Part shown: one piece after another, positions 1 through 31,111 of the stretch
How the letters are laid out: the number at the start of each line of letters is the position of its first letter
How positions within the stretch are numbered: the stretch's first letter is position 1
DNA from: a virus
Lineage: Duplodnaviria; Caudoviricetes
Strand: one strand, 5' to 3'
IMG/VR virus record: IMGVR_UViG_3300030330_006692
Span: 1 to 64,000 of that record
Length of the DNA stretch: 64,000 nucleotides
Notes under the pieces: generated by a model
Database searches by the model: none
What the model saw: the letters and a program-made list of their open reading frames with translations, nothing else
What the model was told of the DNA's origin: nothing
Made by a program: the position numbers and the translations under genes

Positions 1-1
1 A

Positions 2-172
2 GTAGGTGATATTGTTAAACGTTTTCTTACCGATCAGTTCGGCATCGTGCTGGACATCAAGCCGCTTGGTTCTATTCATGTGATGTGGACTACACAGGGC
101 GACTCGTTGTTCGGTCCTGGTAGCAAAGAATGGTGTGATGAAAGAAGTTTGGAACTCCTGACATCCTCTTGA
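2..172 (+). CDS. 5'-truncated small SH3/KOW-like protein (VGDIVKR...GIVLDI...VMW...LELL)
   Basis: Hand translation of frame 2; same VGD(I/L)V...GIV...W...LE pattern as many neighbours; stop TGA 170-172. Confidence 0.7.
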   Translation, partial: VGDIVKRFLTDQFGIVLDIKPLGSIHVMWTTQGDSLFGPGSKEWCDERSLELLTSS

Positions 173-232
173 CAACTAATCACTTGCGAACCTCGCTCAC
201 CTATGCTATATTATATAGGTAATCAAGGAGAA
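158..232 (+). promoter_or_regulatory. Early promoter cassette copy 1
   Basis: CTGACA 158, TTGACA 169, -35 TTGCGA 184, TG-c-TATATT 204-212 (17-bp spacer), AAGGAG RBS. Confidence 0.85.
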
Positions 233-236
233 CTAC

Positions 237-1115
237 ATGTCATACAATGGAACCGTCCGCTGCTCTTACTGCTTCCAAACTGGTCACAACAGGCGCACTT
301 GCCCTGAGCTTAGTGAAGCCACTGCGCGCCTGTGGCGCAACGCCAAGAGCAGCTACGATCGCATGGTTAAGGAAGGTAAGACCGAGATGTCCGACATGTA
401 CAAGTCGCGTATGCAAAGCTATGCCGACCGCTACGCAACGCGCACCGGCAAGGATGTCGCGACTGGCGAAGATATTGTCATGACTAAGGAGACCAAGAAA
501 GCAGCCAAGGCAAAGCGACTGAAGAACATCCGCTGCTCGTACTGTGGCAACACTGGACACACGCGCCGGACCTGTCAGGATCTAAAGGACGACAGGCAAG
601 TTTACCTCAAGGCTGTCCTTGACAAGCGGATTGATGCTCTGAACAAAATGCGTGAGCTTGGTGTCGGTGTCGGCTCGCTCGCCAAGATGCAGCGGTATGG
701 CTACTGGCCAGACAAGGAGAACGGTGGAACCACTTGGGGTTCTCGCCTGCGCCCGATGTTGCTGAGAAACATCAACTGGTCAGCGATTCTCCCGCACAAT
801 GACAGGTTGACCAACCTGTACCACTTTCACGATGCTGCACAGCTTTGCGGCGATGGGGATCACTACTCTTGGACCGACGAGGGCTACAACTTTGCTGCCG
901 ATGCTGTGGAGAACGGCTCTCTTACTCCATCTGGAACCATCAATCCGCCCGATGGCTGGTTTGAGGGCAAAGATGTTGACATGTCATATGTCTTCCCTCC
1001 GGGCAAGCTGCGTGACTGGGCTTTCCGCGATGCTCATCAGAGGATCCTCAATGACGATCCCCCACAGAGCCATAACACCGAGCTTTACAAGGCTCGCAAG
1101 TCGCTGGGGATCTAA
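237..1115 (+). CDS. Protein with two CCHC zinc knuckles
   Basis: CSYCFQTGHNRRTC and CSYCGNTGHTRRTC = CX2CX4HX4C; RBS and promoter upstream. Confidence 0.8.
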   Translation: MSYNGTVRCSYCFQTGHNRRTCPELSEATARLWRNAKSSYDRMVKEGKTEMSDMYKSRMQSYADRYATRTGKDVATGEDIVMTKETKKAAKAKRLKNIRCSYCGNTGHTRRTCQDLKDDRQVYLKAVLDKRIDALNKMRELGVGVGSLAKMQRYGYWPDKENGGTTWGSRLRPMLLRNINWSAILPHNDRLTNLYHFHDAAQLCGDGDHYSWTDEGYNFAADAVENGSLTPSGTINPPDGWFEGKDVDMSYVFPPGKLRDWAFRDAHQRILNDDPPQSHNTELYKARKSLGI

Positions 1116-1197
1116 CAATCCCCTTGACATTCTCTTTACAACTTATCCCTTGCAATCTCTGTTCCCCCATGCTATATTATATAGGTAATCAAGGAGA
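1112..1197 (+). promoter_or_regulatory. Early promoter cassette copy 2
   Basis: CTAACA 1112, TTGACA 1124, TTTACA 1135, -35 TTGCAA 1150, TGcTATATT -10 at 1173, AAGGAG. Confidence 0.85.
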
Positions 1198-1203
1198 GAA
1201 CCA

Positions 1204-1689
1204 ATGAAAGTTCGCAACGCCATCAAGAAAGTCAAATCCCACTTCGCCAAGCAAGGCATCGACATCGATGTGCAGCTTATTGGTCATCGCTGGACATTTG
1301 TTCACAACGGCTATGTCGGCTCGTTCCTCGCCAACGGTGCCTGCACCGATGAGGATCAGATGGACGCCGACGCACACAACTTCCACGTGCGCCGTGAGAA
1401 TGACCATAGCTGTCTGTACTCCGACTATCATGCTGGCTCGTTCCGTGATAACATCACGCAAGTTTGTGAGAGTCTGTTGCCGCCTGCGCCTAAGTTCGCC
1501 GTCGGCTCACTCGTGCGAGGCAAGCAGAACAAGCGCGCAATGCGCCAGGGCTACGCTGGCAAGGTGGGTCTTGTGGTGCCGAATGGTACGGGCAGTAGCC
1601 GCTATGCTAAGGTGGCTTGGGTTGGTGAGGCTCAACCTAAGTGGGGCTGGGCGACTTATCCAGAGCGTGACCTTGAATTGGTTAGTTGA
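1204..1689 (+). CDS. Hypothetical early protein with C-terminal SH3-like module
   Basis: C-term KFAVGSLVRG...VGLVV...VAW...DLELVS; RBS upstream. Confidence 0.75.
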   Translation: MKVRNAIKKVKSHFAKQGIDIDVQLIGHRWTFVHNGYVGSFLANGACTDEDQMDADAHNFHVRRENDHSCLYSDYHAGSFRDNITQVCESLLPPAPKFAVGSLVRGKQNKRAMRQGYAGKVGLVVPNGTGSSRYAKVAWVGEAQPKWGWATYPERDLELVS

Positions 1690-1752
1690 CAAATCGCTTG
1701 ACATTTCCCTGACAACAAAATACTTGCACTAAATGACATCCCATGCTATATT
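1686..1752 (+). promoter_or_regulatory. Early promoter cassette copy 3
   Basis: TTGACA 1686, TTGACA 1698, CTGACA 1709, -35 TTGCAC 1724, TGcTATATT -10 at 1747. Confidence 0.85.
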
Positions 1753-1798
1753 TATAGAGTAAGGCAAAGAACTAACACCCTCAACACTGGAGCCCAAC

Positions 1799-2887
1799 AT
1801 GGCTATCGACTTCGCAACATTCCTCAACGTCGCCCCTCACATCCTCAACAGCAAGCTGCCTGTACTTATCCGTGGTCGCCACGGTGTCGGCAAGTCCGAG
1901 GTGGTCTACCAGATCGCCGCAACTCGCGACCTGCCTGTGGTCGAGCGCCGCGCTTCTCAGATGACCGAGGGTGACCTTCTTGGTTTGCCCGATGTGGCTG
2001 ACACGTCCATCAACGGTCGCAAGGCTACCACTTGGAACGCGCCTGACTGGCTTGTAACCGCTTGTGAACAGCCTGTCCTTCTCTTCCTCGATGAGGTGGA
2101 CCGCGCGACCATGGAGGTCCGTCAGGGTCTCTTCGAGTTGACCGACAGCCGCAAACTGAACGGCTGGCACCTCCACGCCGACACCCTGATCGTCGCTGCC
2201 GTCAACGGCGGTGAGCACGGCGCTCAGTACCAAGTTGGCGAGATGGACCCAGCCGAGCTTGACCGCTGGACCGTCTTCGATGTCGAGCCTTCCACCGAGG
2301 ACTGGCTCAAGTGGGCTAACGATCGCGTGCCGTCGGTCGTTTGGGACTTCATTAATCACAACCGTAAGCACTTGGAGCACGAGGGTGACTTCGAGCCTAA
2401 CAAGGTCTACCCTTCCCGTCGCTCATGGAAGCGATACTGCGACACCGCAGAGCCCGCGGGTGTGTTCGGTGAGGACGGAGACCGCGATCTTCTCTTCAAC
2501 CTTGCGACCGCGTTCCTTGGTTTCGAGGCTGCTGTGTCCCTTCGTGACTTCGTTGAGAAGTACGAGTGGCAAGTGACCATTGAGGATATCCTTGACCTTG
2601 GAGACTTCTCCAAGACCGACAAGTGGGGCATCAACGACCACGCTGCTATGATTGAGAAGTTTGAGGCTTCTGGAGTCTTCAAGGATGATCTCGCTGAGAC
2701 TCAGGTCGGTAACCTTGCCGAATACTTTGTATCTCTGCCATCAGAGATCGCCATGAAGCTGTGGACCGTTCTCGGTGACACCGATAACATCAACAATGTT
2801 GTGGCTCTGCACAAGGCGGAGACCACCGACGGTCGCCGGGTCTCCGATCACCTTGTCGAGATCCTTGGTGGCAACACTGAAGACTAA
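1799..2887 (+). CDS. MoxR-type AAA+ ATPase
   Basis: Walker A GRHGVGKS, Walker B LLFLDEVDR, AAVN sensor, DPAELDRW Arg-finger. Confidence 0.9.
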   Translation: MAIDFATFLNVAPHILNSKLPVLIRGRHGVGKSEVVYQIAATRDLPVVERRASQMTEGDLLGLPDVADTSINGRKATTWNAPDWLVTACEQPVLLFLDEVDRATMEVRQGLFELTDSRKLNGWHLHADTLIVAAVNGGEHGAQYQVGEMDPAELDRWTVFDVEPSTEDWLKWANDRVPSVVWDFINHNRKHLEHEGDFEPNKVYPSRRSWKRYCDTAEPAGVFGEDGDRDLLFNLATAFLGFEAAVSLRDFVEKYEWQVTIEDILDLGDFSKTDKWGINDHAAMIEKFEASGVFKDDLAETQVGNLAEYFVSLPSEIAMKLWTVLGDTDNINNVVALHKAETTDGRRVSDHLVEILGGNTED

Positions 2888-2889
2888 TC

Positions 2890-3129
2890 ATGTTTCATCG
2901 ACTACCGCCGATTGACCGTGACCCGGAGGTGGGTGACCTTTGCAGGCTCAATGGAGCCGAGGGTCAAGCCCATCGCTTCCGCGAAAAGCATGGTGTTGGC
3001 ATGATTGTCAAGAAGCACGTGATTAGTGAGAACTCCAGAGCAGTTCAGTACGAGATTAAATGGCTGAAAAGCGAGGAACACATGAGGTTTTTCAAAGATG
3101 ACATCTTTATCATCTCAGACGTGGACTGA
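2890..3129 (+). CDS. Small SH3-like protein
   Basis: EVGDLCRL...GVGMIVKK...YEIKW. Confidence 0.65.
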   Translation: MFHRLPPIDRDPEVGDLCRLNGAEGQAHRFREKHGVGMIVKKHVISENSRAVQYEIKWLKSEEHMRFFKDDIFIISDVD

Positions 3130-3322
3130 TAGGCTAGAAATCGGTGACTTGGTGTTCGCTGTCAGAGATGGCAAGCCCGGTATAGTGCTTGACAAAGAAG
3201 AGATGGCACAAGCCAAATACGGCGACATAGCGAACAAGCGATGGAGGTTCAGGCTTCACATCGACGGAGAGCAAGGGTGGTTAGACGAGGTCCGCATGAG
3301 GACCGGATACAGGATCCCTTGA
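3098..3322 (+). CDS. Small SH3-like protein
   Basis: LEIGDLVFAVRDGKPGIVLDK; start uncertain. Confidence 0.6.
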   Translation: MTSLSSQTWTDRLEIGDLVFAVRDGKPGIVLDKEEMAQAKYGDIANKRWRFRLHIDGEQGWLDEVRMRTGYRIP

Positions 3323-3388
3323 CATTTCCTTGACAACTAAAACCTTGACTTTGCCCCTCCACGATGCTATATTATATATGTAAGGAGA
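3319..3388 (+). promoter_or_regulatory. Early promoter cassette copy 4
   Basis: TTGACA 3319, TTGACA 3330, -35 TTGACT 3345, TGcTATATT -10 at 3368, AAGGAG. Confidence 0.85.
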
Positions 3389-3394
3389 AAGAAC

Positions 3395-4633
3395 ATGTCC
3401 GACGACAAGACCACCAAGCCCTTCAATCTCAACATGCACACTGCTCGCCTGCTCATGCGCGAGCCGTTCTTCGCTGCTCTGTCTCGTCGTATTGACAAGA
3501 TTGAGTCAACTGCGATTCCTACCGCTGGTGTCCGCGTCAACCCTGACTCCGCTCAGTTTGAACTGATGTACAACCCTGAGTTCTTCGCTGCGCTCTCCGA
3601 CGAGCACAAGCAGGGTATCCTCATGCACGAGTTCTACCACCTTGTATTCGAGCACGTGACCAGCCGCAAGCCTGCCGATGGTCTTAAGCGCATCGACAAC
3701 ATTGCGATGGACCTCGCTATCAACTGCCACATTTCCAAGATGCTGCCAAGCGAGTCCAACCCTGGTCCAGAGATCAGCGGTGAGCCCATGCAAGCATGTA
3801 TCCCAGGTGAGGGCATGTTCAAGGATCTTCCTCCTTACAAGACCTACGAGTGGTATCTTGAAGAGCTTAAAAAGATGCAGCAAGAGCAGCAACAAGACGG
3901 CGACGGCGAGGGTGGTCAAGGCAATGGTGACCCTTTTGGTAACATGGACTCCCTTGACTCTCACGATGAGTTTGGCGATGTGGATGGCACGACCCAAGAG
4001 ATTGCCAGTGAGCGCATGAAGGAAGCTATCAAGAAAGCAGCAGAGGAAGCTGAGAAGTCCCGCAACTGGGGCTCCGTGTCCTCCACCATGCGCCAAGACA
4101 TCATGGAGCGCATTGCGACTAAGGTTGACTGGCGCAAGGTTCTTCGATACTTTGTCAAGACTTCACAGCGCGCCGACAAGCGTTCGACGCCTCGTCGTCT
4201 CAATAAGCGGTTCCCAAAGGTCCACCCTGGCAAGCGCGTCCGTCGCCAAGCTAAGATCGCCGTGTCCATCGACCAGTCTGGCTCTGTGGACGATGCGATG
4301 CTCGCCGCGTTCTTCTCCGAGTTGAACAAGCTGGCAGAGATCGCAGAGTTCACCGTCATCCCCTTCGACACCGCGGTAGCCGAGAGCAAGATCTATACAT
4401 GGAAGAAGGGTCAGAACAAGAAGACTGAGCGTGTTCTCACTGGTGGTACATGCTTCAACGCTCCTACCAAGTACGTCAACGAGAAGGGTTTCGATGGTCA
4501 CATCATCCTGACAGACCTGATGGCTCCTAAGCCAATCCCGTCCAAGTGCCAGCGCATGTGGATGACCACTAAGAACTACGCAGCGCGCCCGTACTTCACA
4601 ACTAACGAGCGGATCATTGCCATCGACGGTTGA
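3395..4633 (+). CDS. Metallopeptidase-like + VWA domain protein (DUF2201-type), partner of the MoxR ATPase
   Basis: HEFYH zincin motif, Q/G/D-rich linker, VSIDQSGS MIDAS, GGT, ILTD. Confidence 0.85.
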   Translation: MSDDKTTKPFNLNMHTARLLMREPFFAALSRRIDKIESTAIPTAGVRVNPDSAQFELMYNPEFFAALSDEHKQGILMHEFYHLVFEHVTSRKPADGLKRIDNIAMDLAINCHISKMLPSESNPGPEISGEPMQACIPGEGMFKDLPPYKTYEWYLEELKKMQQEQQQDGDGEGGQGNGDPFGNMDSLDSHDEFGDVDGTTQEIASERMKEAIKKAAEEAEKSRNWGSVSSTMRQDIMERIATKVDWRKVLRYFVKTSQRADKRSTPRRLNKRFPKVHPGKRVRRQAKIAVSIDQSGSVDDAMLAAFFSELNKLAEIAEFTVIPFDTAVAESKIYTWKKGQNKKTERVLTGGTCFNAPTKYVNEKGFDGHIILTDLMAPKPIPSKCQRMWMTTKNYAARPYFTTNERIIAIDG

Positions 4634-4700
4634 CATTTTACTGACACTTTTAGCCTTGATTGTTGAGTCGATCAGTGCTATATTTAATAGACAAAGGAGA
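4630..4700 (+). promoter_or_regulatory. Early promoter cassette copy 5
   Basis: TTGACA 4630, CTGACA 4641, -35 TTGATT 4656, TGcTATATT -10 at 4679, AAGGAG. Confidence 0.85.
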
Positions 4701-4706
4701 GAGATC

Positions 4707-5039
4707 ATGCCCGCAGACTTCACACCCCGCACTAATGACGATGTTATCGCCAAATGGATGGATGGCGTAAGTGCCCGTAATCACAGCAGAACTTTGAAGA
4801 GTGTGGCTTGGGATGATGGCTATGCTGACCTGTACAGCTATGAGCTAAAGATCGGTTCTCGGACTCCAACGGGTTCACTGATCGTTGCGGACTACACAGC
4901 GCCAGCCGGAGGGTTCCAGTCAATGACCACTTCTCAGCACGTCAATCTTGCCAAGGTTCACGCTTGTCGCGAGGGCGCACTCGTAATGCATCCTCTGGTC
5001 TGGGAGGCTTCCGCTCTGAGTGATGAGGTTCCATTCTAG
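4707..5039 (+). CDS. Hypothetical early protein (start corrected to MPADF)
   Basis: ATG 4707 follows the RBS; the upstream in-frame extension runs through the promoter. Confidence 0.75.
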   Translation: MPADFTPRTNDDVIAKWMDGVSARNHSRTLKSVAWDDGYADLYSYELKIGSRTPTGSLIVADYTAPAGGFQSMTTSQHVNLAKVHACREGALVMHPLVWEASALSDEVPF

Positions 5040-5242
5040 TGAGTAGGTTTAAGCCGGGTGATCTTGTGAAGGTCAAAGATGGAACGCACCAAGATGGCAT
5101 GCCTGCTCACCGGGTCGGCATGGTCATCGAGGAAGGCGAGACTTCAAAGTCATACTCTAAAGCGTACACGATCATATTTCTCGGCACTGACCTGCACTTA
5201 AAGTTTCATGAGACATTCTTAGAACCCTTTACAACCCATTGA
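5039..5242 (+). CDS. Small SH3/KOW-like protein
   Basis: FKPGDLVKVK...VGMVIEE...YTIIF...LEP. Confidence 0.75.
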   Translation: MSRFKPGDLVKVKDGTHQDGMPAHRVGMVIEEGETSKSYSKAYTIIFLGTDLHLKFHETFLEPFTTH

Positions 5243-5299
5243 CATCTTAAACCTTGACGATCGCTCTCAGGCGGTTATATTATATGTGTAGAAAGGAGA
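5228..5299 (+). promoter_or_regulatory. Early promoter cassette copy 6
   Basis: TTTACA 5228, TTGACA 5239, -35 TTGACG 5254, TATATT 5276 (16-bp spacer), AAGGAG. Confidence 0.8.
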
Positions 5300-5305
5300 A
5301 AACAC

Positions 5306-5500
5306 ATGCTTGCTATTCCACTCATCCGCACCGACACCGGCGATAGCCTGACACCCATCGAGCGCACCACACTTGCCTGCGAGCAGGTTGTTACTGCTCT
5401 GATGATGCAGGCTACCCTTGACGATCCGCAGATCACTGAACAGGAGCGCGAGACATACACAACCTTGTCCGTCGCTACCATCATTCCAGCAGAGGCATAG
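5306..5500 (+). CDS. Hypothetical early protein
   Basis: ORF directly after promoter and RBS. Confidence 0.7.
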   Translation: MLAIPLIRTDTGDSLTPIERTTLACEQVVTALMMQATLDDPQITEQERETYTTLSVATIIPAEA

Positions 5501-5671
5501 ATGACTGCTTTTGAGATCAAACTCTACAACGAAAAGACGCGCCGGTATCACTTTCTAGCGATGGTCGATGCCGAGAGTAAGGATGAGGCTCTTCAAAAGT
5601 TTATCAATCGCAACAAATATAAGGCGAAGCCCGGTTTTCACCTCTTTGTCAAGACTCCAGGGTGTCTATAA
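5501..5671 (+). CDS. Small hypothetical protein (56 aa, not in ORF track)
   Basis: Hand translation MTAFEIKLYNEK...KTPGCL; abuts upstream stop, TAATG coupling to next gene. Confidence 0.65.
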   Translation: MTAFEIKLYNEKTRRYHFLAMVDAESKDEALQKFINRNKYKAKPGFHLFVKTPGCL

Positions 5672-6006
5672 TGGAACTACCTATCAAAGTAACATGGCCG
5701 CCAATGCTTTACACTGACCGATCCGGTCAAAAGTGGGCTGTTTCTGGTCAGTTCTGGCTCCCAGTGGGCGAGACCGCTACGCTTGACTCCATTGACGATG
5801 TGATGGTTTATGAGCCTCGTAAAGCCTCTCCAGAGCCTTCTAACGTACAGTCTTGGAAGGTCCAAGGCAGTACTGGCAAAAGCTATACAGTGAGCTACGA
5901 TGGGCATGTATGGCGATGTACGTGTGCTGGCTTCGGGTGGCGTCGTAAGTGTCGCCATATCACGGAGAAGATGCACCAGAGCGCTGACAAGTCCTTGACA
6001 ACTTAA
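5671..6006 (+). CDS. SWIM zinc-finger protein
   Basis: VQGSTGKSYTV...WRCTCAGFGWRRKCRH (CxC...CxH). Confidence 0.8.
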   Translation: MELPIKVTWPPMLYTDRSGQKWAVSGQFWLPVGETATLDSIDDVMVYEPRKASPEPSNVQSWKVQGSTGKSYTVSYDGHVWRCTCAGFGWRRKCRHITEKMHQSADKSLTT

Positions 6007-6056
6007 ACCTTGACTTCTACCCGTATCGGTGCTATATTATAAGGGTAGAAAGGAGA
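5984..6056 (+). promoter_or_regulatory. Early promoter cassette copy 7
   Basis: CTGACA 5984, TTGACA 5995, -35 TTGACT 6010, TGcTATATT -10 at 6033, AAGGAG. Confidence 0.85.
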
Positions 6057-6060
6057 AACG

Positions 6061-6165
6061 ATGCAACTTAATCGTGTACTTACCGCAGCCATCGCCGCCG
6101 ATGCCATTTGTATGGGCGCTCTGGTATTTTTCGCAATCCACTGGTTTCAGTGTCCGACAGCATAG
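6061..6165 (+). CDS. 34-aa hydrophobic peptide
   Basis: MQLNRVLTAAIAADAICMGALVFFAIHWFQCPTA directly after RBS. Confidence 0.65.
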   Translation: MQLNRVLTAAIAADAICMGALVFFAIHWFQCPTA

Positions 6166-6174
6166 GAGATAAAA

Positions 6175-6567
6175 ATGTCTGATATTCTAAACATCCGAGT
6201 AACCGAGCGCGAGCTTGACCTTATTATGGACCTACTTCACGAGGCTGGTCTTCGCACTGATGCGGACGGACAGCCCGCAATCGAGATTTGCCACGATCTG
6301 ATGGAGCAAGCCGGTCGCGAGGTCGATGAGTGGGAGTCTACCGATCTTGACGGTCGCACTTTCACTGTCGCAGAGGATCACTTCATCGATCTCGGCATGC
6401 GAGCCCGTGAGATGCGCAAGGCTGAGAAGATGGCGCGCGGTGTGTCAATGGCTGCCGATCGGCGCGCTCATCGCTTCGGTGAGTTTAGCGTCGATGATCC
6501 TAATGATCGCTCTGACCAGCAGCGCGTTGACGTATGGGAACGCCCCAACGACCCAACGAAGTGGTAA
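6175..6567 (+). CDS. Hypothetical early protein
   Basis: AGGAG RBS, intact ORF. Confidence 0.75.
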   Translation: MSDILNIRVTERELDLIMDLLHEAGLRTDADGQPAIEICHDLMEQAGREVDEWESTDLDGRTFTVAEDHFIDLGMRAREMRKAEKMARGVSMAADRRAHRFGEFSVDDPNDRSDQQRVDVWERPNDPTKW

Positions 6568-6571
6568 GTAT

Positions 6572-6682
6572 ATGTGGTTATTGACTTTTTTGCTTGCTGC
6601 CGTTATCGAGGGTGTCCGAGATAACATCATTCTTGCCATTGAACATATCAAGGCTGACGTTGACAACTACTTGACAACTTAA
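6572..6682 (+). CDS. 36-aa hydrophobic-N-terminus peptide
   Basis: MWLLTFLLAAVIEG...NYLTT fills the gap, stop inside cassette copy 8. Confidence 0.45.
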   Translation: MWLLTFLLAAVIEGVRDNIILAIEHIKADVDNYLTT

Positions 6683-6736
6683 ACCTTGCAAACCCCCTCA
6701 CCCTATGTTATATTATAAGTATAGAAAGAAAGGAGA
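6660..6736 (+). promoter_or_regulatory. Early promoter cassette copy 8
   Basis: TTGACA 6660, TTGACA 6671, -35 TTGCAA 6686, TGtTATATT -10 at 6709, AAGGAG. Confidence 0.85.
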
Positions 6737-6743
6737 ACATTCT

Positions 6744-7085
6744 ATGCCGTCAACTCTTGTAAAATCTTATGTTACTCGTCTTCGCAATGCTGCCACTCGC
6801 CTCGATGCACAGCAGGTGATGCAGATTTGGCACGAAGCAGGACTCAACGAAACTCTTGGCGTCTCGGGCGTAGTCCAGATTCATCAGGCTAAGGGTGTTT
6901 CTGATATGATCTTTCATGCTAATCAAGCATGCCAAAAAATCAAGCTACAGCATTTGAACCCAAGCACTGAACTGCCGGAGTTGTCTGAACTTAAAAAGGA
7001 CGAACTCATCCGTCTTTGTAAGTTGCGTTCGGTTGGAGGATATTCTAAGCTGAACCGTGGACAGCTAATCGAGTTGTTGTCATAG
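6744..7085 (+). CDS. Protein with C-terminal Rho-N/SAP-like helical module (start corrected)
   Basis: LSELKKDELIRLCKLRSVGGYSKLNRGQLIELLS resembles Rho N-terminal domain. Confidence 0.7.
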   Translation: MPSTLVKSYVTRLRNAATRLDAQQVMQIWHEAGLNETLGVSGVVQIHQAKGVSDMIFHANQACQKIKLQHLNPSTELPELSELKKDELIRLCKLRSVGGYSKLNRGQLIELLS

Positions 7086-7087
7086 CC

Positions 7088-7160
7088 CTGACATCTTCTT
7101 GACAACTTAATCCTTGCGATCCGCTGCCCCCTATGTTATATTATAAGTATAGAAAGGAGA
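7088..7160 (+). promoter_or_regulatory. Early promoter cassette copy 9
   Basis: CTGACA 7088, TTGACA 7099, -35 TTGCGA 7114, TGtTATATT -10 at 7137, AAGGAG. Confidence 0.85.
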
Positions 7161-7167
7161 TAGTTCT

Positions 7168-7341
7168 ATGATTGAAGTCGGAAGCGTAGTTAAGAGCAAG
7201 TATCTGGTCAGTGGTCACGTTGCCCGCATTGGTCTAGTGACGAAGACTGTTGGAAAGCTCGCAGAGGTATTCTGGCCACATAGCCGGTCAAAGGGCTGGG
7301 TCAAGTGCGAGGACATGGAGGTGATCAATGCAAGTCGGTGA
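7168..7341 (+). CDS. SH3-like micro-protein 1 of tandem array (57 aa)
   Basis: MIEVGSVVKSK...IGLVTK...EVFW...DMEVINASR; not in ORF track. Confidence 0.8.
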   Translation: MIEVGSVVKSKYLVSGHVARIGLVTKTVGKLAEVFWPHSRSKGWVKCEDMEVINASR

Positions 7342-7486
7342 TTTGGTTGTGCAGGTAGGCTGGGAAGCTGACGGGGCAGGTATTGTCCTCAGCACCCGCG
7401 CCCAACGCTATGCTACTGTTTTGTGGCCCGGTGGAGAAGTGGAAATGCTACTCAGCGATCTGGAGGTGATCAATGCAAGTCGGTGA
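7328..7486 (+). CDS. SH3-like micro-protein 2 (52 aa)
   Basis: MQVGDLVVQV...AGIVLS...TVLW...DLEVINASR; GGAGG RBS. Confidence 0.8.
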   Translation: MQVGDLVVQVGWEADGAGIVLSTRAQRYATVLWPGGEVEMLLSDLEVINASR

Positions 7487-7628
7487 TCTGGTAAGCAGCA
7501 ACGGGCATTTGGCAATCGTGATATGCGTCAATGCCTATGAGACATTGATTAAGTGGTTCGATGATGGCATCGTTGAGGATGCCGACAACTATGGGACATC
7601 GCTGGAGGTGGTTAGTGCAAGTCGGTAG
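7473..7628 (+). CDS. SH3-like micro-protein 3 (51 aa)
   Basis: MQVGDLVSS...LAIVIC...LIKW...SLEVVSASR; GGAGG RBS. Confidence 0.8.
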   Translation: MQVGDLVSSNGHLAIVICVNAYETLIKWFDDGIVEDADNYGTSLEVVSASR

Positions 7629-7788
7629 TTTGGTCCGTGAGACTATGGATGGTAACATCGGGATCATCGTGGCGTGGGAAAATGACGGTTGGCTTGTCAA
7701 CTTCCCAAAACACGGCATGGTCTTCCATATGTTGCCGAGACTACTGGAGGTAGTTGACAACTCTCTTGACATTCTCTTGACAACTTAG
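7615..7788 (+). CDS. SH3-like micro-protein 4 (57 aa, GTG start)
   Basis: MQVGSLVRE...IGIIVAW...WLVNF...LLEVVD; GGAGG RBS. Confidence 0.8.
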   Translation: MQVGSLVRETMDGNIGIIVAWENDGWLVNFPKHGMVFHMLPRLLEVVDNSLDILLTT

Positions 7789-7841
7789 TTGTTGACTTTC
7801 GCCTCTCCCGGTGTTATATTATAAGTATAGAAAGAAAGGAG
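7754..7841 (+). promoter_or_regulatory. Early promoter cassette copy 10
   Basis: TTGACA 7754, 7766, 7777; -35 TTGACT 7792; TGtTATATT -10 at 7815; AAGGAG. Confidence 0.85.
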
Positions 7842-7849
7842 TTTATTCT

Positions 7850-8185
7850 ATGCAACGCGCTATCGACCAAATCAAGATCCAAACCACTCGTCAATACAAG
7901 CCAGCGCCAGCGCCTCCAACTCGGAAGCAACTGCAAGGCTGGACTGTCGAGCAGGTTGGCCCGCAGATGTGGGTTGTCTTCCGTCACTCCTCCACACAAG
8001 GCAAGCAAGCTGTGATGGACTTCCCCGATCCTTCATGGGCTGAGTCATTCGCTGCTGGCTGCAACGCCGAGTACTCAAACCCTACCAAGATGAGCGCCAA
8101 GAGCCTGAAGCGCAAAGATGCTAAGTACCTGACCGATGCCGAGAAGGCTGACCTCGCTGCGCTTGAAGCCGGCGAGGGCATTTAG
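7850..8185 (+). CDS. Hypothetical early protein (start corrected to MQRAI)
   Basis: ATG after RBS of cassette 10. Confidence 0.75.
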   Translation: MQRAIDQIKIQTTRQYKPAPAPPTRKQLQGWTVEQVGPQMWVVFRHSSTQGKQAVMDFPDPSWAESFAAGCNAEYSNPTKMSAKSLKRKDAKYLTDAEKADLAALEAGEGI

Positions 8186-13394: not shown

Positions 13395-14399
13395 ATGATA
13401 TTAGCTTTTTTACTTTCTTTGCTGAGTTGCACGCAGGATTATGCGGTTATAAACTCCAAAGAACCAGAGACTATCGTAGTCACTGAAACAATTACGGAAA
13501 CAATTACGGAAGAGGTTGAGATAGAAGTACCAGTTTATGTTGAAGTAGAGGTACCGGTTAATGAGGGTGAAATATGGATTGATTCTTTTACTCAACACAT
13601 GTCAATTGATGGAATTGATATTTTGTGGGTTGTCGATCGATCTGGTTCTATGAACCGTTATAATCCCGAGTTATTGGCAGGTGTCGAGGCAATGCTGTTA
13701 GCTCTACCAACATCTGATTGGAGGCTTGTCATGATTAGCGCGGATCCAACCCGCTCCGTCACAAGTACAGAGTTTCCATTAGTTCCTGGAGATGATATCG
13801 ATGATGCAGCAGCTATGTTGGCTACATTAACATCCGCTCCATATGAAGAAGGGTTTAATTCTGTATATCAGTATATTAATCATAATCCGTATTCTTCTAC
13901 ATGGATGCGTCCGGACGCTGGCTTATTAGTGGTCTTTGTATCTGATGAAGAAGAGCAAAGCGATATTGAATACCCCCACCCATCAGACTTTATAAGTTGG
14001 TATGGCTCTCTAAGAATGGGATCTGTATTTATGGCGAGCATTGTTAACCATGAGTCTAGTGTATCTTTATGTGGTTGGGTTAGCGCTATCGATGTTGGTG
14101 ATAGATACATGGAAGCTACTAACATGCTGGGTGGGGTTATTGTTGACATATGCGATACAGATTGGTCGCCGGGAGTCACAGATGCAACTCATTCAATAGA
14201 ACCAGTTGAAAAAATAACATTGACACACAAAGCAGAGGCGGATACAATTAGGGTTTTTATTGATGGTGTATTAAATTTTGATTGGTTCTATGTAGAATCA
14301 GAAAATACTGTGCATTTTACTGTTTTACCTTCGGCTGGGCAATTAGTTGAAGTAGGATACTTATATAAACAAGAAGAAGCTGAGGATACTGGAACATGA
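13395..14399 (+). CDS. VWA-domain lipoprotein (myxobacterial/Bdellovibrio type)
   Basis: Lipobox-like LLSC; DILWVVDRSGSM MIDAS; VVFVSDEEEQS; VDICD. Confidence 0.8.
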   Translation: MILAFLLSLLSCTQDYAVINSKEPETIVVTETITETITEEVEIEVPVYVEVEVPVNEGEIWIDSFTQHMSIDGIDILWVVDRSGSMNRYNPELLAGVEAMLLALPTSDWRLVMISADPTRSVTSTEFPLVPGDDIDDAAAMLATLTSAPYEEGFNSVYQYINHNPYSSTWMRPDAGLLVVFVSDEEEQSDIEYPHPSDFISWYGSLRMGSVFMASIVNHESSVSLCGWVSAIDVGDRYMEATNMLGGVIVDICDTDWSPGVTDATHSIEPVEKITLTHKAEADTIRVFIDGVLNFDWFYVESENTVHFTVLPSAGQLVEVGYLYKQEEAEDTGT

Positions 14400-15139
14400 G
14401 AAATAAAATAAAATATATGTTATTAACATTGTGTGCTTTAGTGGCATTTTCCTTGCCTGGACACTCAGACAGTTATAAGCCAGGAAAACCAGTTGAAACA
14501 ATCAGTAAAGGTATGTCTGGGGTAGAAAAAGACGTACGCAAAGCAGCCGTAAAGATATTGACGCTTGGTGGCGGGCATGGTTCCGGTTCCGTTATACAGT
14601 ACAAGGATATGCAGCTTATCTTAACAGCAAAGCATGTGACTGAAGATGAAATTGGAACTGAATATATAATCGAAAAGGATCGTTCCATAAAAAAAGCAGT
14701 GTTGATTTATAAAAATCCTTCACAAGATATGGCTGTTTTACTTTTAAAAGAGCCATTTTCGAAAAGTGTATTGGAGCCTATGCCATGGAAAATTTCCAAG
14801 GATCACAAAGTGGGCACAAAAATAGTGTACTCTGGATATCCTTCTTGGCACTCTTTAATGTCATTTGACGGTAGAATAGCTGGAGTTGAGAACGCAGTTG
14901 CTGCCGGAACTCAATTAATAATAAACACATATGGGTGGTTTGGTTGCTCTGGCTCTGTGATATACAACACCTCGGGACAAATTATGGGAATTTTATATGG
15001 AGTAGACGTTGAATATTATCCAGAAATTCAAGTGCAGGAAAACATGATCTGGGTTGCACCTATAAAATACCTACCAATGGATAGGACATTAAAAGAGTTT
15101 TGCGAAAATAAAGCGCATAATTATAAGGCATGTCGCTAA
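14396..15139 (+). CDS. Secreted trypsin-like serine protease
   Basis: Signal peptide; GSG, LTAKH, D-MAVL, GCSGS catalytic motifs. Confidence 0.85.
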   Translation: MRNKIKYMLLTLCALVAFSLPGHSDSYKPGKPVETISKGMSGVEKDVRKAAVKILTLGGGHGSGSVIQYKDMQLILTAKHVTEDEIGTEYIIEKDRSIKKAVLIYKNPSQDMAVLLLKEPFSKSVLEPMPWKISKDHKVGTKIVYSGYPSWHSLMSFDGRIAGVENAVAAGTQLIINTYGWFGCSGSVIYNTSGQIMGILYGVDVEYYPEIQVQENMIWVAPIKYLPMDRTLKEFCENKAHNYKACR

Positions 15140-19752: not shown

Positions 19753-19994
19753 TGTTAAAAAAATTTACAGAACATCCAAGTGAAAAAGGTGAAACCTATC
19801 TTCAACACATGCTGTCATCATGGAAAATAGTATATACACTTAAAGTGATCGAGTCTCAATGCTTTGTCCATTCAATTTTTCCATTTTTATTTACTGACGC
19901 TCTTTCTGGAAAAATAAGTTGTTTGGAAAAATTAGCACACCGAACACAAGAAGACTCAGAAGAAGAGCTATATGAGGTTTACGGTGGTGATTGA
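19752..19994 (+). CDS. DUF6356-like protein
   Basis: EHP...GETY.QH...VHSIFPFLF pattern. Confidence 0.6.
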   Translation: MLKKFTEHPSEKGETYLQHMLSSWKIVYTLKVIESQCFVHSIFPFLFTDALSGKISCLEKLAHRTQEDSEEELYEVYGGD

Positions 19995-20071
19995 TTTTTT
20001 AATCATTGGATTTGCATGTATCAGCATCGCAGCATTTACTGCTACCAAAGACGATCATAAAAATAAAGAAA

Positions 20072-20404
20072 ATGTACAGATACAAAGCGAACCTGATCCG
20101 AGTAATTGATGGCGACACCATAGACGCTTTGGTTGATTTAGGTTTTGATGTTTGGATTAAGAAGCGTGTTAGATTATACGGTATTGACACACCAGAAACA
20201 CGCACCAGAGACGTTGAAGAGAAGAAAGCGGGAAAAGCTGCCATGGCTAGACTAGTAGAGATTCTAGGTGAATCTAACAATGAATTTATTTTACAATCTC
20301 ACGGTGTTGGAAAATACGGAAGATGTCTTGGGACACTATTTATTGACGATACCAATATTAACATGCTATTATTAAATGAAGGGCATGCGGAGGAATACAA
20401 GTGA
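20072..20404 (+). CDS. Thermonuclease (SNase family)
   Basis: RVIDGDTID; RVRLYGIDTPE; GKYGRCLG. Confidence 0.9.
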   Translation: MYRYKANLIRVIDGDTIDALVDLGFDVWIKKRVRLYGIDTPETRTRDVEEKKAGKAAMARLVEILGESNNEFILQSHGVGKYGRCLGTLFIDDTNINMLLLNEGHAEEYK

Positions 20405-20646
20405 AATATTTAATCTTATTTTTATTATCAGGCGCGGCGTACGCAAACGAGGATGAGCCACAGCCACAGGTTGTTTACAAACAAAAGACTGAAATTGATT
20501 TTGAAGGCGTGGAAGTAGATGGGAGTCTAGTAAAACCCCAAGGCTCTCTGGTTTTAGAAAGAAAGCGAGCACAATTTAATTCAATGGTTTGGATTAGAAC
20601 AGATTTTGATGATGAAATAGAAAAAACTATCCAGGAAATTAAATAA
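20401..20646 (+). CDS. cglF: CglF/GltF-like gliding-motility protein
   Basis: Signal peptide then KTEIDFEGVEVDGSLVKPQGS...FNSMVWIRTDFDDE, matching recalled Myxococcus CglF pattern (KTVIDF..V.GEL.KPEGS...F.SLI.VR.NF..E). Confidence 0.75.
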   Translation: MKYLILFLLSGAAYANEDEPQPQVVYKQKTEIDFEGVEVDGSLVKPQGSLVLERKRAQFNSMVWIRTDFDDEIEKTIQEIK

Positions 20647-20999
20647 TGTTTCCTTTATTTTTTGAAAATAGTAAGATACCTGTTTGGTTATCCAAACTTG
20701 CTCCAATTGAAATAAATGCGCTAAGTTTTTTTATCTTTGTTTTCTCACGAGGTGAGATGGATGAGAGAGTTCGTAGACATGAAACAATTCATTACAAACA
20801 GCAAGTTGAAATGTTGTTTATATTTCAATGGATTATGTATGCTTATTTTCATGTTAAAGGTTTGTTGACTGGTATTAAAGGTTCTGAAGCTTATTATAAA
20901 AATCCATTTGAGTTAGAAGCATACGATAATGACGAAAAAGAGAACTATTTAAATAAAAGAAAGCATTATGCTTGGATAAAATATTGGAGAGAAATATGA
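20646..20999 (+). CDS. Small zincin-like (HExxH) membrane protein
   Basis: RHETIH.KQ..E; NPFELEAY. Confidence 0.65.
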   Translation: MFPLFFENSKIPVWLSKLAPIEINALSFFIFVFSRGEMDERVRRHETIHYKQQVEMLFIFQWIMYAYFHVKGLLTGIKGSEAYYKNPFELEAYDNDEKENYLNKRKHYAWIKYWREI

Positions 21000-29291: not shown

Positions 29292-29888
29292 ATGAAAATT
29301 TTATATACTTTATTCCTTTTAGGATGCCCTCCATCAGATTTAGAAATTGCCGAGGATTCCGATCAGTTTGAAATCACAGAACCTCCAGCACCGCCTAATG
29401 GAGTAATTGCTGCAGACGACTGCAGACATGTCGACAGAGGTGATCTGGCATGTAATTTCATACTACATGATCAGAATTCTGAGAATTGGGAGCTTTACAA
29501 TCACATGGGTGAAGTTACAGTTCTTGATTTTTCAACTATATGGTGCTATCCTTGTCAAATTGCTGGGAATTTTGCGCAACCAATTCAAGATGACTATGCT
29601 GATCAAGGAGTTAATTTTGTAACAGTATTGATAGACGGAATGCAGCATTCGATCGAACCCACACAGGATGAAATCTCAGAATGGGTGCAGTCTCATGGAA
29701 TAACTACCGCGCCAATATTGCAAGGAAGCAGAGAAAAGATGTTATCATCAGATTCTTCAGGGTATGATGGTTATTTGTTGGGCGGTTTTCCTACATATGT
29801 TTATATTGGGAAGGATATGAAATTTTATTCAGCACATGTGGGCTTCAACGAAGAACATGTTAGACAAACAATAGAAGAAGGTTTATAA
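29292..29888 (+). CDS. TlpA/redoxin-family thioredoxin lipoprotein
   Basis: LFLLGC lipobox-like; VLDFSTIWCYPC; GFPT. Confidence 0.8.
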   Translation: MKILYTLFLLGCPPSDLEIAEDSDQFEITEPPAPPNGVIAADDCRHVDRGDLACNFILHDQNSENWELYNHMGEVTVLDFSTIWCYPCQIAGNFAQPIQDDYADQGVNFVTVLIDGMQHSIEPTQDEISEWVQSHGITTAPILQGSREKMLSSDSSGYDGYLLGGFPTYVYIGKDMKFYSAHVGFNEEHVRQTIEEGL

Positions 29889-30097
29889 TGTGGAAAATAT
29901 ATAAATGGAATGGACACTATATTATGGGTGATCTGATCAGCAAGCACTCGAGTGAAGATGCAGCACTTAAAAAAGCTGCTAAAGAAATTAATTTTACTTT
30001 TGCGGAAAAAACCAAAAGAGATAAAGAAATTTTAATTTGGCTAGACAACACAGATCACACACCAGTAGGTGTAATAGTTAAAAAAACACGGGGGTGA
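29888..30097 (+). CDS. Hypothetical protein
   Basis: TAATG coupling; stop overlaps tmRNA 5' end. Confidence 0.6.
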   Translation: MWKIYKWNGHYIMGDLISKHSSEDAALKKAAKEINFTFAEKTKRDKEILIWLDNTDHTPVGVIVKKTRG

Positions 30098-30423
30098 CTT
30101 AGGTTTCGACGTGGTATTGAAAAAATTAAATGCAAGCAGGAAAGATACATCCTTAAAAGTTCAAAAACAATAGTTGCAAATAACAACACACACTTCGAAC
30201 AGCGCTTAGCCGCTTAGTAGGGAGGCTGATTAGAGCCTTCTATCCAATCTAGTCAACACAACAGATCAGTTGCAAAAATCACAAAACTTATCGCAACAGG
30301 ATGGTAAGCGATATTTTACAACCATCTATCTTTGTCAGTTCGTGATAGAAACTGAATAAGCTTGTGAATGACTTAATTTTGAATTTATTGCGGACGCGGG
30401 TTCGAATCCCGCCGCCTCCACCA
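30090..30423 (+). ncRNA. ssrA: tmRNA
   Basis: Acceptor GGGGGTG/CGCCTCC with G3-U, ACCA 3' end, T-arm GCGGG-TTCGAAT-CCCGC, tag ORF 30176-30217 ANNNTHFEQRLAA followed by TAGTAG. Confidence 0.95.
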
Positions 30424-30437
30424 TATAAGGAAAAAAT

Positions 30438-30629
30438 ATGTTCAATTGGTTTAAGAAAAGTAAAAAAGTAAGCTCGGCGCCAAATTTTGATTTTGAAGAT
30501 ACCATTGAGGAAACTCTTTGGGAAATCAAGCAAGAGTATGATTTAGAAACAGAAGAAGTCGAAATGACAGTATTCCAAAAGCGACACTATATAAATTATA
30601 TGAACGAGTGTGTTAAAAATAAGAAATGA
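30438..30629 (+). CDS. Hypothetical protein
   Basis: AAGGA RBS. Confidence 0.55.
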   Translation: MFNWFKKSKKVSSAPNFDFEDTIEETLWEIKQEYDLETEEVEMTVFQKRHYINYMNECVKNKK

Positions 30630-31111
30630 ATATTTGGGTGGCGTTATACAAAGGTAAGGGAAATTTAATCAATGCCATTGTACGCCGCTGGACAAAAAGC
30701 CAATATAGTCATGCTGAGTTAATATTGAATGACAAGAAAACGTGGATTGGGATCAGCCCGTTCATAAAATCAAAAATAACTGAGAGAAAAGACGTAGAGT
30801 ATAATCCAGAAAATTGGGACTTTTACGAAATACCGGTAACCGAAGAACAGTATCAGTCTATATTAGATTTTTACGATATCACTAAAGGTGCCACATATGA
30901 TTGGGTAGGTATGCTGTTATCTCAGTTTTTATCTTTTCGCATAAAGCAAAAATATAAATGGTACTGCAGTGAGTGGATTTTGTATGCTTTAAGAATATCA
31001 TGCATAGTTGATTGGAAGATAATTAAAATTTTTGATCAATCTGACTTGTCACCTTCAAAATTGCATGATATACTGTTATTATGTGACTTTAAAAAAGTTA
31101 ATTTGGAGTAA
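30626..31111 (+). CDS. Permuted papain-like (YaeF/YiiX-type) enzyme
   Basis: YSHAEL...YDW...WYCSEW...SP. Confidence 0.75.
   Translation: MNIWVALYKGKGNLINAIVRRWTKSQYSHAELILNDKKTWIGISPFIKSKITERKDVEYNPENWDFYEIPVTEEQYQSILDFYDITKGATYDWVGMLLSQFLSFRIKQKYKWYCSEWILYALRISCIVDWKIIKIFDQSDLSPSKLHDILLLCDFKKVNLE

Follow-up and report, generated by a model that had tools for sequence, protein, structure and literature searches.

The DNA analysed here (called the window, 64,000 nucleotides) comprises the opening 64 kb of an IMG/VR virus record of 96.5 kb, which is about 49% complete according to CheckV. On its plus strand lies a gltF/cglF-like ORF with a GTG start, and its coordinates include the stop codon of an 81-aa product (Table 1). 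The ORF is a real gene. It is preceded by a Shine-Dalgarno sequence, its GTG shares letters with the TGA stop of the upstream staphylococcal-nuclease-like (SNase) gene (GTGA), and its TAA shares letters with the following ATG (TAATG). Because of these overlaps, gltF is one link in a tightly translationally coupled operon. Its acquisition by the phage appears to be old, since the GC content (36%) and GC3 (29%) of the gene equal those of the phage.

Several other small genes surround it. The micro-protein gene listed in Table 1 overlaps the 3' end of an upstream 80-aa gene and the 5' end of the SNase gene, and a peptide of the type I-D-L-F-I-I-G-F-A-C is encoded directly before gltF in most related phages; in three of the loci (L184-L186) a 44-aa gene overlapping the gltF start was called. 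We regard the micro-protein gene as neighbourhood context only. Directly 3' of gltF (20646-20999, +) is a gene for a 117-aa protein with H-E-T-I-H, an HExxH-like motif, and a hydrophobic N-terminal half, which has no match in Pfam or NCBIfam and is found in some relatives only. Three otherwise unrelated proteins near gltF (starts at 19071, 20996 and 21963) open with M-K-x-L-(I/M/L)-E-N-W-R-(K/G)-(F/Y).

Table 1. Features at and around the phage gltF gene, in window coordinates
Feature	Position	Strand	Basis
Micro-protein gene, 44-45 aa, single-pass membrane	19972..20109	+	ORF listing; kept before gltF across the phage clade
Staphylococcal-nuclease-like gene, coupled to gltF start	20072..20404	+	Pfam SNase, E 3.4e-11
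Shine-Dalgarno GGAGGA	20389..20394	+	Read from the sequence; spacing to gltF GTG 6 nt
gltF/cglF-like gene	20401..20646	+	ORF listing; NF033764 E 7.2e-14; median dN/dS 0.09
Predicted Sec signal peptide, residues 1-15, A-Y-A then N16	20401..20445	+	Sequence; A13/A15 conservation; AF2 helix 2-11
Core segment, residues 29-46, KTEIDFEGVEVDGSLVKP	20485..20538	+	T30, E31, I32, D33, F34, E35, G41, L43, V44, P46 conserved
Motif F-N-S-M-V-W-I-R, residues 59-66	20575..20598	+	F59, N60, R66 invariant
Predicted C-terminal amphipathic helix, residues 68-81	20602..20643	+	AF2 helix 70-80; D68, F69, position 73, K81 conserved
tmRNA	30090..30423	+	ARAGORN; tag ANNNTHFEQRLAA

Family membership and architecture of the phage GltF

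The original prediction, made from the letters alone, was that this gene encodes a CglF/GltF-like protein with a signal peptide. The HMM comparison with CglF confirmed it: the phage protein matched NCBIfam NF033764 ("adventurous gliding motility protein CglF") with an E-value of 7.2e-14 and 51.6 bits, and residues 8-80 aligned with positions 10-88 of the 88 in the model. The match is far beyond chance. The curated equivalog cut-off of this model is 90 bits, so that the score of 51.6 bits demonstrates homology and not equivalog status. We therefore place the phage protein, on its score, in the broad GltF family and outside the narrow Myxococcus-type NCBIfam equivalog. None of the five closest cellular genomes reached the 90-bit cut-off (0/5), and the same model was matched by 84 of 86 diverse relatives that we sampled. 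Searches of Pfam and PHROGs with the phage GltF gave no significant match; a hit to DUF7382 (E 0.058) was not significant and was disregarded.

When 1.84 billion cluster representatives were searched exhaustively with HMMER, 531 clusters had E <= 1e-3, and nearly all of them are proteins of 75-100 aa which share one design. The N-terminal part consists of the leader, an acidic stretch, V-x-Y-K, T-E-I-D-F-E and G-E-L-x-K-P, and the C-terminal part has R-x-x-A-x-F-N-P-L-I-x-L-R-x-D-F followed by a short helix with a final K. A word-indexed search gave 729 proteins of near length; the best 120 of these 729 were at least 68% identical, and many of these 120 came from Tara and other marine assemblies, on contigs reaching 203 kb. 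The clusters of the ESM Atlas closest to the phage GltF are viral (340, 71 and 73 members).

Proteins of the broad family are small (about 80-90 aa) and carry a Sec signal peptide at the N-terminus for export, and the GltF of Myxococcus xanthus has 89 aa and a signal peptide (PMC3169522). The phage protein is of the same kind by prediction. Its leader has K2, a hydrophobic core and A-Y-A preceding N16, and A13 and A15 are kept in phage and cellular GltFs alike. Conservation was scored for each residue over 131 phage and 79 cellular GltF sequences, and the most conserved segment of the family is that of residues 29-46. The phage GltF retains Y26, K27, T30-E35, G41, L43, V44, P46, L50 and L52, and also R54, K55, A57, F59, N60, R66, D68, F69 and K81. 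It thus has the conserved core strand, the F-N...R motif and the residues of the C-terminal helix, with all family-invariant residues kept. At residues 59-66, the consensus in cellular GltFs is F-N-P-L-I-K-L-R.

AF2, run with a family alignment of 86 sequences, predicted helices at residues 2-11 and 70-80 only and an extended chain for the rest (mean pLDDT 81, pTM 0.24), and the block with the best pLDDT was the C-terminal helix. In this prediction the phage protein agrees with the published model of GltF (PMC11761067), which is a mostly unfolded chain with one C-terminal helix and a strand that is added on a partner.

Compared with GltF/CglF of M. xanthus (MXAN_4868), the phage copy is of similar size (about 80-90 aa) and likewise has a Sec leader for export. 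Both share the core TEIDF...G.L.KP, F-N-x-x-x-x-x-R and the C-terminal D-F..E helix, and for both the prediction is a mostly disordered chain with a single terminal helix. They differ in that the phage copy has no glt neighbours, scores 51.6 bits against the 90-bit cut-off, and falls on a branch of small-genome marine Myxococcota rather than Myxococcaceae. The position between gltE and gltG, which is typical of the family in glt clusters, was not found in the phage, where the neighbours are the SNase-like gene and unassigned phage genes. Because its closest cellular relatives do sit between gltE and gltG, the phage gltF appears to be a xenolog that departed from the glt cluster.

The carrier phage and conservation among phages

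The GC content of the record is about 37%, and its long ORFs are all on one strand. It encodes a tmRNA, two tRNA genes and a PhoH-family gene. Among the hallmarks of T4-type phages we found a baseplate wedge subunit, which matched phrog_219 and phrog_6. A DUF6267-cytidylyltransferase protein is 33-40% identical to its counterparts in T4-like cyanophages, pelagimyophage HTVC008M and Methylophilales phage Melnitz. The record, about half of the genome, does not include the capsid and terminase genes. That the gene is encoded by a phage, as originally proposed, is thus upheld by the IMG/VR record, the baseplate wedge gene and the genes common to T4-like marine phages. The carrier is, judged from its genes, probably a T4-like myovirus, and a divergent one because nine other large late-region proteins have no PHROG family. 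Other glt genes were absent from the 96.5-kb record, which represents about 49% of the genome, in tblastn searches with GltC, the GltD-like protein, GltE, GltG, CglE and neighbouring proteins of the best cellular locus, L039. Among isolated phages, tblastn of GltF against 50,697 records (INPHARED) gave no match.

Positions 1-8000 of the window have 50-53% GC, and about 37% is found for the remainder of the record; the genes there include a MoxR-type AAA ATPase, a DUF2201 metallopeptidase/VWA pair and a zinc-finger protein. Two giant late-region ORFs (record 55424-62569 and 66332-78763, both +) encode 2381 and 4143 aa, and the large proteins neighbouring them have no PHROG family except one baseplate wedge subunit. 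A lipoprotein gene at 13395-14399 (+) with a MIDAS/VWA motif (D-x-S-x-S) is coupled to a trypsin-like protease gene at 14396-15139 (+), and a TlpA-like oxidoreductase gene lies at 29292-29888. The lipoprotein has no Pfam match and matches a model of Bdellovibrio MIDAS adhesin weakly. Its homologues, of similar size and 27-29% identical, are present in all five candidate host genomes (5/5; the candidate hosts are described below), and these homologues also match the VWA region of CglD weakly. A 288.7-kb viral contig from a different jumbo phage (L024) encodes, at 5114-6670 (-), a lipoprotein of 518 aa in which a choice-of-anchor D domain is combined with a CglD-like VWA region, 2 kb away from the gltF of that contig.

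In total, 33 viral contigs with gltF were found, and 22 of the 33 keep a common block in the order g817, g80a, g80b, gltF, g232, g107 (for products of 817, 80 and 80 aa, GltF, and products of 232 and 107 aa). Optional inserts occur in this block, for example the SNase gene of the present phage, which is also present in L002, L003 and L009 and is missing from most other syntenic loci. Among 17 distinct phage copies of gltF the median dN/dS was 0.086 and the maximum 0.28, with saturated synonymous sites; between the window gltF and its nearest copy, L002, dN was 0.011 and dS 0.294. The phage gltF is therefore an intact gene under strong purifying selection, and an abundant uncultured marine clade of T4-like phages has it fixed within a conserved gene block.

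Scans of the phage for sigma-70 promoters and for the T4 late motif TATAAATA gave matches at chance level. The sequence ACTATTTA occurs seven times, on the plus strand only (window 19058, 20335, 20944, 23786, 24696, 34293 and 62981), 5-60 nt ahead of gene starts including those of the baseplate wedge gene and gltF (58 nt), a count which is not significant (8/100 shuffles), and several of the copies are merely codons for L-F-I. In two related contigs (L005 and L007) it is 6 nt upstream of the gltF ATG.

Cellular relatives and candidate hosts

A scan of one genome per species (185,579 species), with a narrower alignment of relatives, found 134 loci with GltF relatives. They are in MAGs labelled Myxococcota, Deltaproteobacteria, Oligoflexia or Bdellovibrionota, and some of these automatic labels are plainly wrong. 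The four best loci (L035, L036, L037 and L039) encode proteins with 62-65% identity to the phage GltF over the whole mature protein, and they belong to marine MAGs of 3.9-4.2 Mb and 52-61% GC labelled Myxococcota or Deltaproteobacteria. In L039 the genes are ordered GltC (E 4e-66), a 1039-aa TPR protein at the position of gltD, GltE (E 9e-41), the GltF-like protein, GltG (E 8e-104, with an FHA domain and an AgmX/PglI TonB-like tail) and CglE, and the downstream genes of L036 are identical in order. This arrangement equals that of M. xanthus, gltD-gltE-gltF-gltG-gltH (PMC3169522). By synteny, the cellular relatives look to be true gltF genes, and their identity with the phage protein is a further argument that the latter is a CglF. 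In L039, CglE scored 100.7 bits and exceeded its cut-off of 70, and the other cluster partners scored under their curated cut-offs. The cellular machine of these marine MAGs would thus be Glt-type, and it may or may not drive gliding.

The GltF genes of these MAGs differ from the phage copy in several respects. They sit between GltE and GltG and adjoin GltC/CglE, whereas the phage copy is elsewhere; their genomes have 52-61% GC, compared with 36% for the phage gene; and the phage copies depart from them at P61, L62, N70 and the Q that follows the leader cleavage site.

In a careful, unrooted maximum-likelihood tree of 71 sequences and only about 87 columns, one side of a branch comprised the 38 other cellular GltFs (support 98/86, present in 97% of bootstrap trees), and all phage copies shared the other side with the four marine MAG GltFs. 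A quick tree had suggested that phages acquired the gene twice independently; under the AU test a single viral clade is not rejected (p 0.75). We infer from synteny that the direction of transfer was from cell to phage. In a sample of 301 genomes of the same phylum, 162 had a match, and two of them (G001 and G002), which belong to the four marine MAGs above, scored about 100 bits compared with at most 85 bits for any other.

Three further loci are probably misbinned phage DNA. L094 (JBBAUR010000108.1, a Bdellovibrionota MAG) is a short contig with a phage-type gltF and a homologue of the phage gene at 30626-31111. L077 (JAYYRF010000048.1, a Myxococcota MAG) is a 4.4-kb contig whose gltF copy is among the viral copies in the quick tree. 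L183 (DMHR01000269.1, a Maribacter sp. MAG) is a 6.9-kb contig with a phage-type gltF and the phage gene order; a flavobacterial host, as the label of the last one would suggest, was rejected, since the contig is probably a binning artefact. A source in Bdellovibrionota was rejected as well: in a smaller sample of this phylum one genome alone matched, on a short contig with a phage gene.

The relatives point to small-genome (about 4-Mb) marine Myxococcota as the host lineage. A second clue is the tmRNA. Its tag in the phage begins with ANNNTHF and ends with a double stop, and the tags of candidate host genomes (ANNNNHFAAAAVA, ANNNNHFAATAVA, ANNNDNFAAAAVA and ANNNSHFALAA) begin with ANNNNHF or ANNNSHF. 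The tag-coding stretch aligns between the phage and the candidate hosts, and the remaining tmRNA is AT-rich and diverged. As an independent clue to the host the tag is supportive only. BLAST of window positions 1-60000 and record positions 62001-82000 against the five candidate genomes gave only a tRNA-Asn, the 3' end of the tmRNA and one weak gene match of 120 nt, and no CRISPR spacer-like match to the phage was found in these genomes with 80 kb of the phage searched. The GC content of the phage is 37%, and that of the candidate hosts is 52-61%. The gap between T4 and Escherichia coli, or between cyanomyoviruses and Synechococcus, is at least as large. The gene had also been taken at first to indicate a predator host of deltaproteobacterial type, and as to lineage this is upheld in a narrower form: the GltF tree and the tmRNA tag favour the marine Myxococcota-labelled MAGs of about 4 Mb, and in the smaller Bdellovibrionota sample the only close match was a short, phage-like contig.

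Possible role in the infected cell

In M. xanthus, GltF is found at the gliding focal-adhesion clusters and is required for the localisation of GltD there (PMC3169522). In a 2025 AlphaFold model of the machine, GltF is largely disordered; one strand extends the sheet of the TonB-like C-terminal domain of GltG, the C-terminal helix fits into a crevice of GltC, a TPR protein, and GltF forms a bridge from GltC to GltG and GltD (PMC11761067). Counted from the C-terminus, phage residues 29-46 and 68-81 would be the modelled GltG-strand and GltC-helix elements, where phage 29-46 is mapped onto residues 94-111 of the 147-aa M. xanthus model (PMC11761067). These two elements are the best-conserved parts in phage and cellular GltFs, and the motif of residues 59-66 would lie on the path between the two modelled contacts.

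Because the contact elements are conserved and the architecture predicted by AF2 is the same, a working GltF at the place of GltF is the reading we prefer. With moderate confidence, we consider the phage gene to be a xenolog of gltF (= cglF), coding for the periplasmic linker of the Agl-Glt (Glt/Nfs-type) machine, which would enter the machine of the host. The phage may have obtained the gene from the marine Myxococcota lineage of about 4 Mb or a near relative, which it would infect. Its GltF would be exported to the periplasm of the infected cell and occupy the position between GltG and GltC, with the central strand added onto the TonB-like C-terminal domain of GltG and the C-terminal helix seated in the TPR groove of GltC, and host GltF would be replaced or out-competed. 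The most likely net effect would be that the machine is kept assembled or is re-tuned after the expression of host genes is shut down.

Such maintenance would resemble the phage copies of other high-turnover host parts. The psbA and phoH genes of cyanomyoviruses are thought to sustain host function during infection. They are likewise single host-type components under purifying selection in large marine myoviruses, and the present phage, like cyanomyoviruses with phoH, carries a PhoH-family gene. The psbA/phoH-type genes belong to metabolism or stress response, whereas the phage gltF would code for a structural linker of a motility-type envelope machine. We rate substitution or maintenance as most likely, jamming or exclusion as second, and docking of phage cargo as third.

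In the second of these, an excess or altered two-ended linker would cap GltG and GltC separately and so uncouple both; the machine would stop, the cell would be immobilised or detached, and superinfection would be blocked if the machine or its TonB-like path serves entry. This idea has a precedent in the well-known phage exclusion proteins acting in the envelope, such as T5 Llp and T4 Imm/Sp. It also agrees with fixed phage differences at near-invariant sites: all cellular proteins retrieved (100%) have P at position 61, where 72% of the phage proteins have S; at position 62, 99% of these cellular proteins have L and 100% of the phage proteins have M; and N70D and R22P are further differences. 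Moreover, GltF is modelled with two separate contacts, and an excess could uncouple the partners (PMC11761067). However, the phage copy is conservative, retaining every family-invariant residue, and S-M-L-W-I-R-like states are also present in Myxococcus-type cellular GltFs (e.g. P0188), so that S61, M62 and W64 are not clearly derived poison states. The suggestion of phage-specific "poison" substitutions (S61, W64) was weakened in this way, and since Myxococcus-type GltFs have similar states, the phage substitutions are no proof of altered function. A role of the Glt machine as phage receptor or entry route is without support. Jamming or exclusion is thus rather unlikely. The block of a Glt outer-membrane receptor, which had been proposed together with the gene, is not the obvious mode of action, because GltF is a periplasmic linker modelled to bind GltG and GltC (PMC11761067).

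Docking would mean that the GltF peptide is an adaptor for envelope proteins of the phage, or for a TonB/Tol-type partner which is not Glt, and that as a portable unit it fastens cargo to a TPR protein or a TonB-like C-terminal domain. The MIDAS/VWA lipoprotein, the trypsin-like protease and the TlpA-like oxidoreductase described above are the candidate cargo, and in a variant the energy of the envelope would be tapped for entry or lysis. Complete GltF modules (47-49% identical over 53-61 residues) do occur within VIT-VWA, DUF4139 and other multidomain proteins. In addition, the VWA lipoprotein accompanies gltF on every phage contig of sufficient length (7 shared contigs), the CglD-like VWA lipoprotein of the 288-kb phage contig is 2 kb from gltF, and a TlpA-like gene adjoins gltF in relatives. 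But the co-occurrence of core genes within one phage clade does not demonstrate that they work together, the GltF of the phage stands alone at full length and is not a fusion, and the genes most closely related to it are canonical gltF genes of glt clusters. A TonB-like or TPR partner was also not found in the 96.5-kb record. We regard docking as improbable.

That gltF is a hitch-hiking host fragment or an annotation artefact without function in the phage might be thought of a very short ORF that lacks a Pfam or PHROG family and is surrounded by many small ORFs, but this is effectively refuted by selection (median dN/dS 0.09, synonymous sites saturated) and by length and synteny kept over dozens of contigs, and the composition is fully phage-adapted, with a good ribosome-binding site and translational coupling.

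A wider proposal, which we put forward tentatively, is that planktonic small-genome Myxococcota are infected by this abundant marine T4-like clade and that the GltF mimic controls their TonB-like, proton-driven Glt machine, by which the machine would be either uncoupled (the cell immobilised or other phages excluded) or kept running. If true, this would be the first virus that manipulates the bacterial gliding/focal-adhesion apparatus, and the GltF peptide would be a general portable docking module. Our literature search found no paper reporting a phage-encoded Glt component, and gliding-machine genes are absent from the auxiliary genes listed in a 2026 preprint on viruses of Myxobacteria. GltF has been regarded as restricted to Myxococcales and Bdellovibrionales (PMC3169522).

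A conserved phage gltF would extend the host functions carried by phages to a structural component of a motility-type envelope machine. It gives a testable host hypothesis for a widespread marine phage clade, which accounts for hundreds of protein clusters in Tara and other ocean datasets and for none among isolated phages. GltF is the least understood Glt component, and its important residues are marked out by their conservation in phage and cellular copies alike; if a phage copy complemented or poisoned gliding, this would reveal how the linker works. The module inside VIT-VWA proteins suggests a more general docking role. It behaves as a portable unit, perhaps as a docking peptide for Glt-type machines. 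Complete copies, with the identity to the phage protein given above, lie near the C-terminus of large VIT-VWA, VWA-only, DUF4139/DUF4140 and unannotated proteins (P0214, residues 601-653; P0146, residues 792-852; P0180; P0244; P0207).
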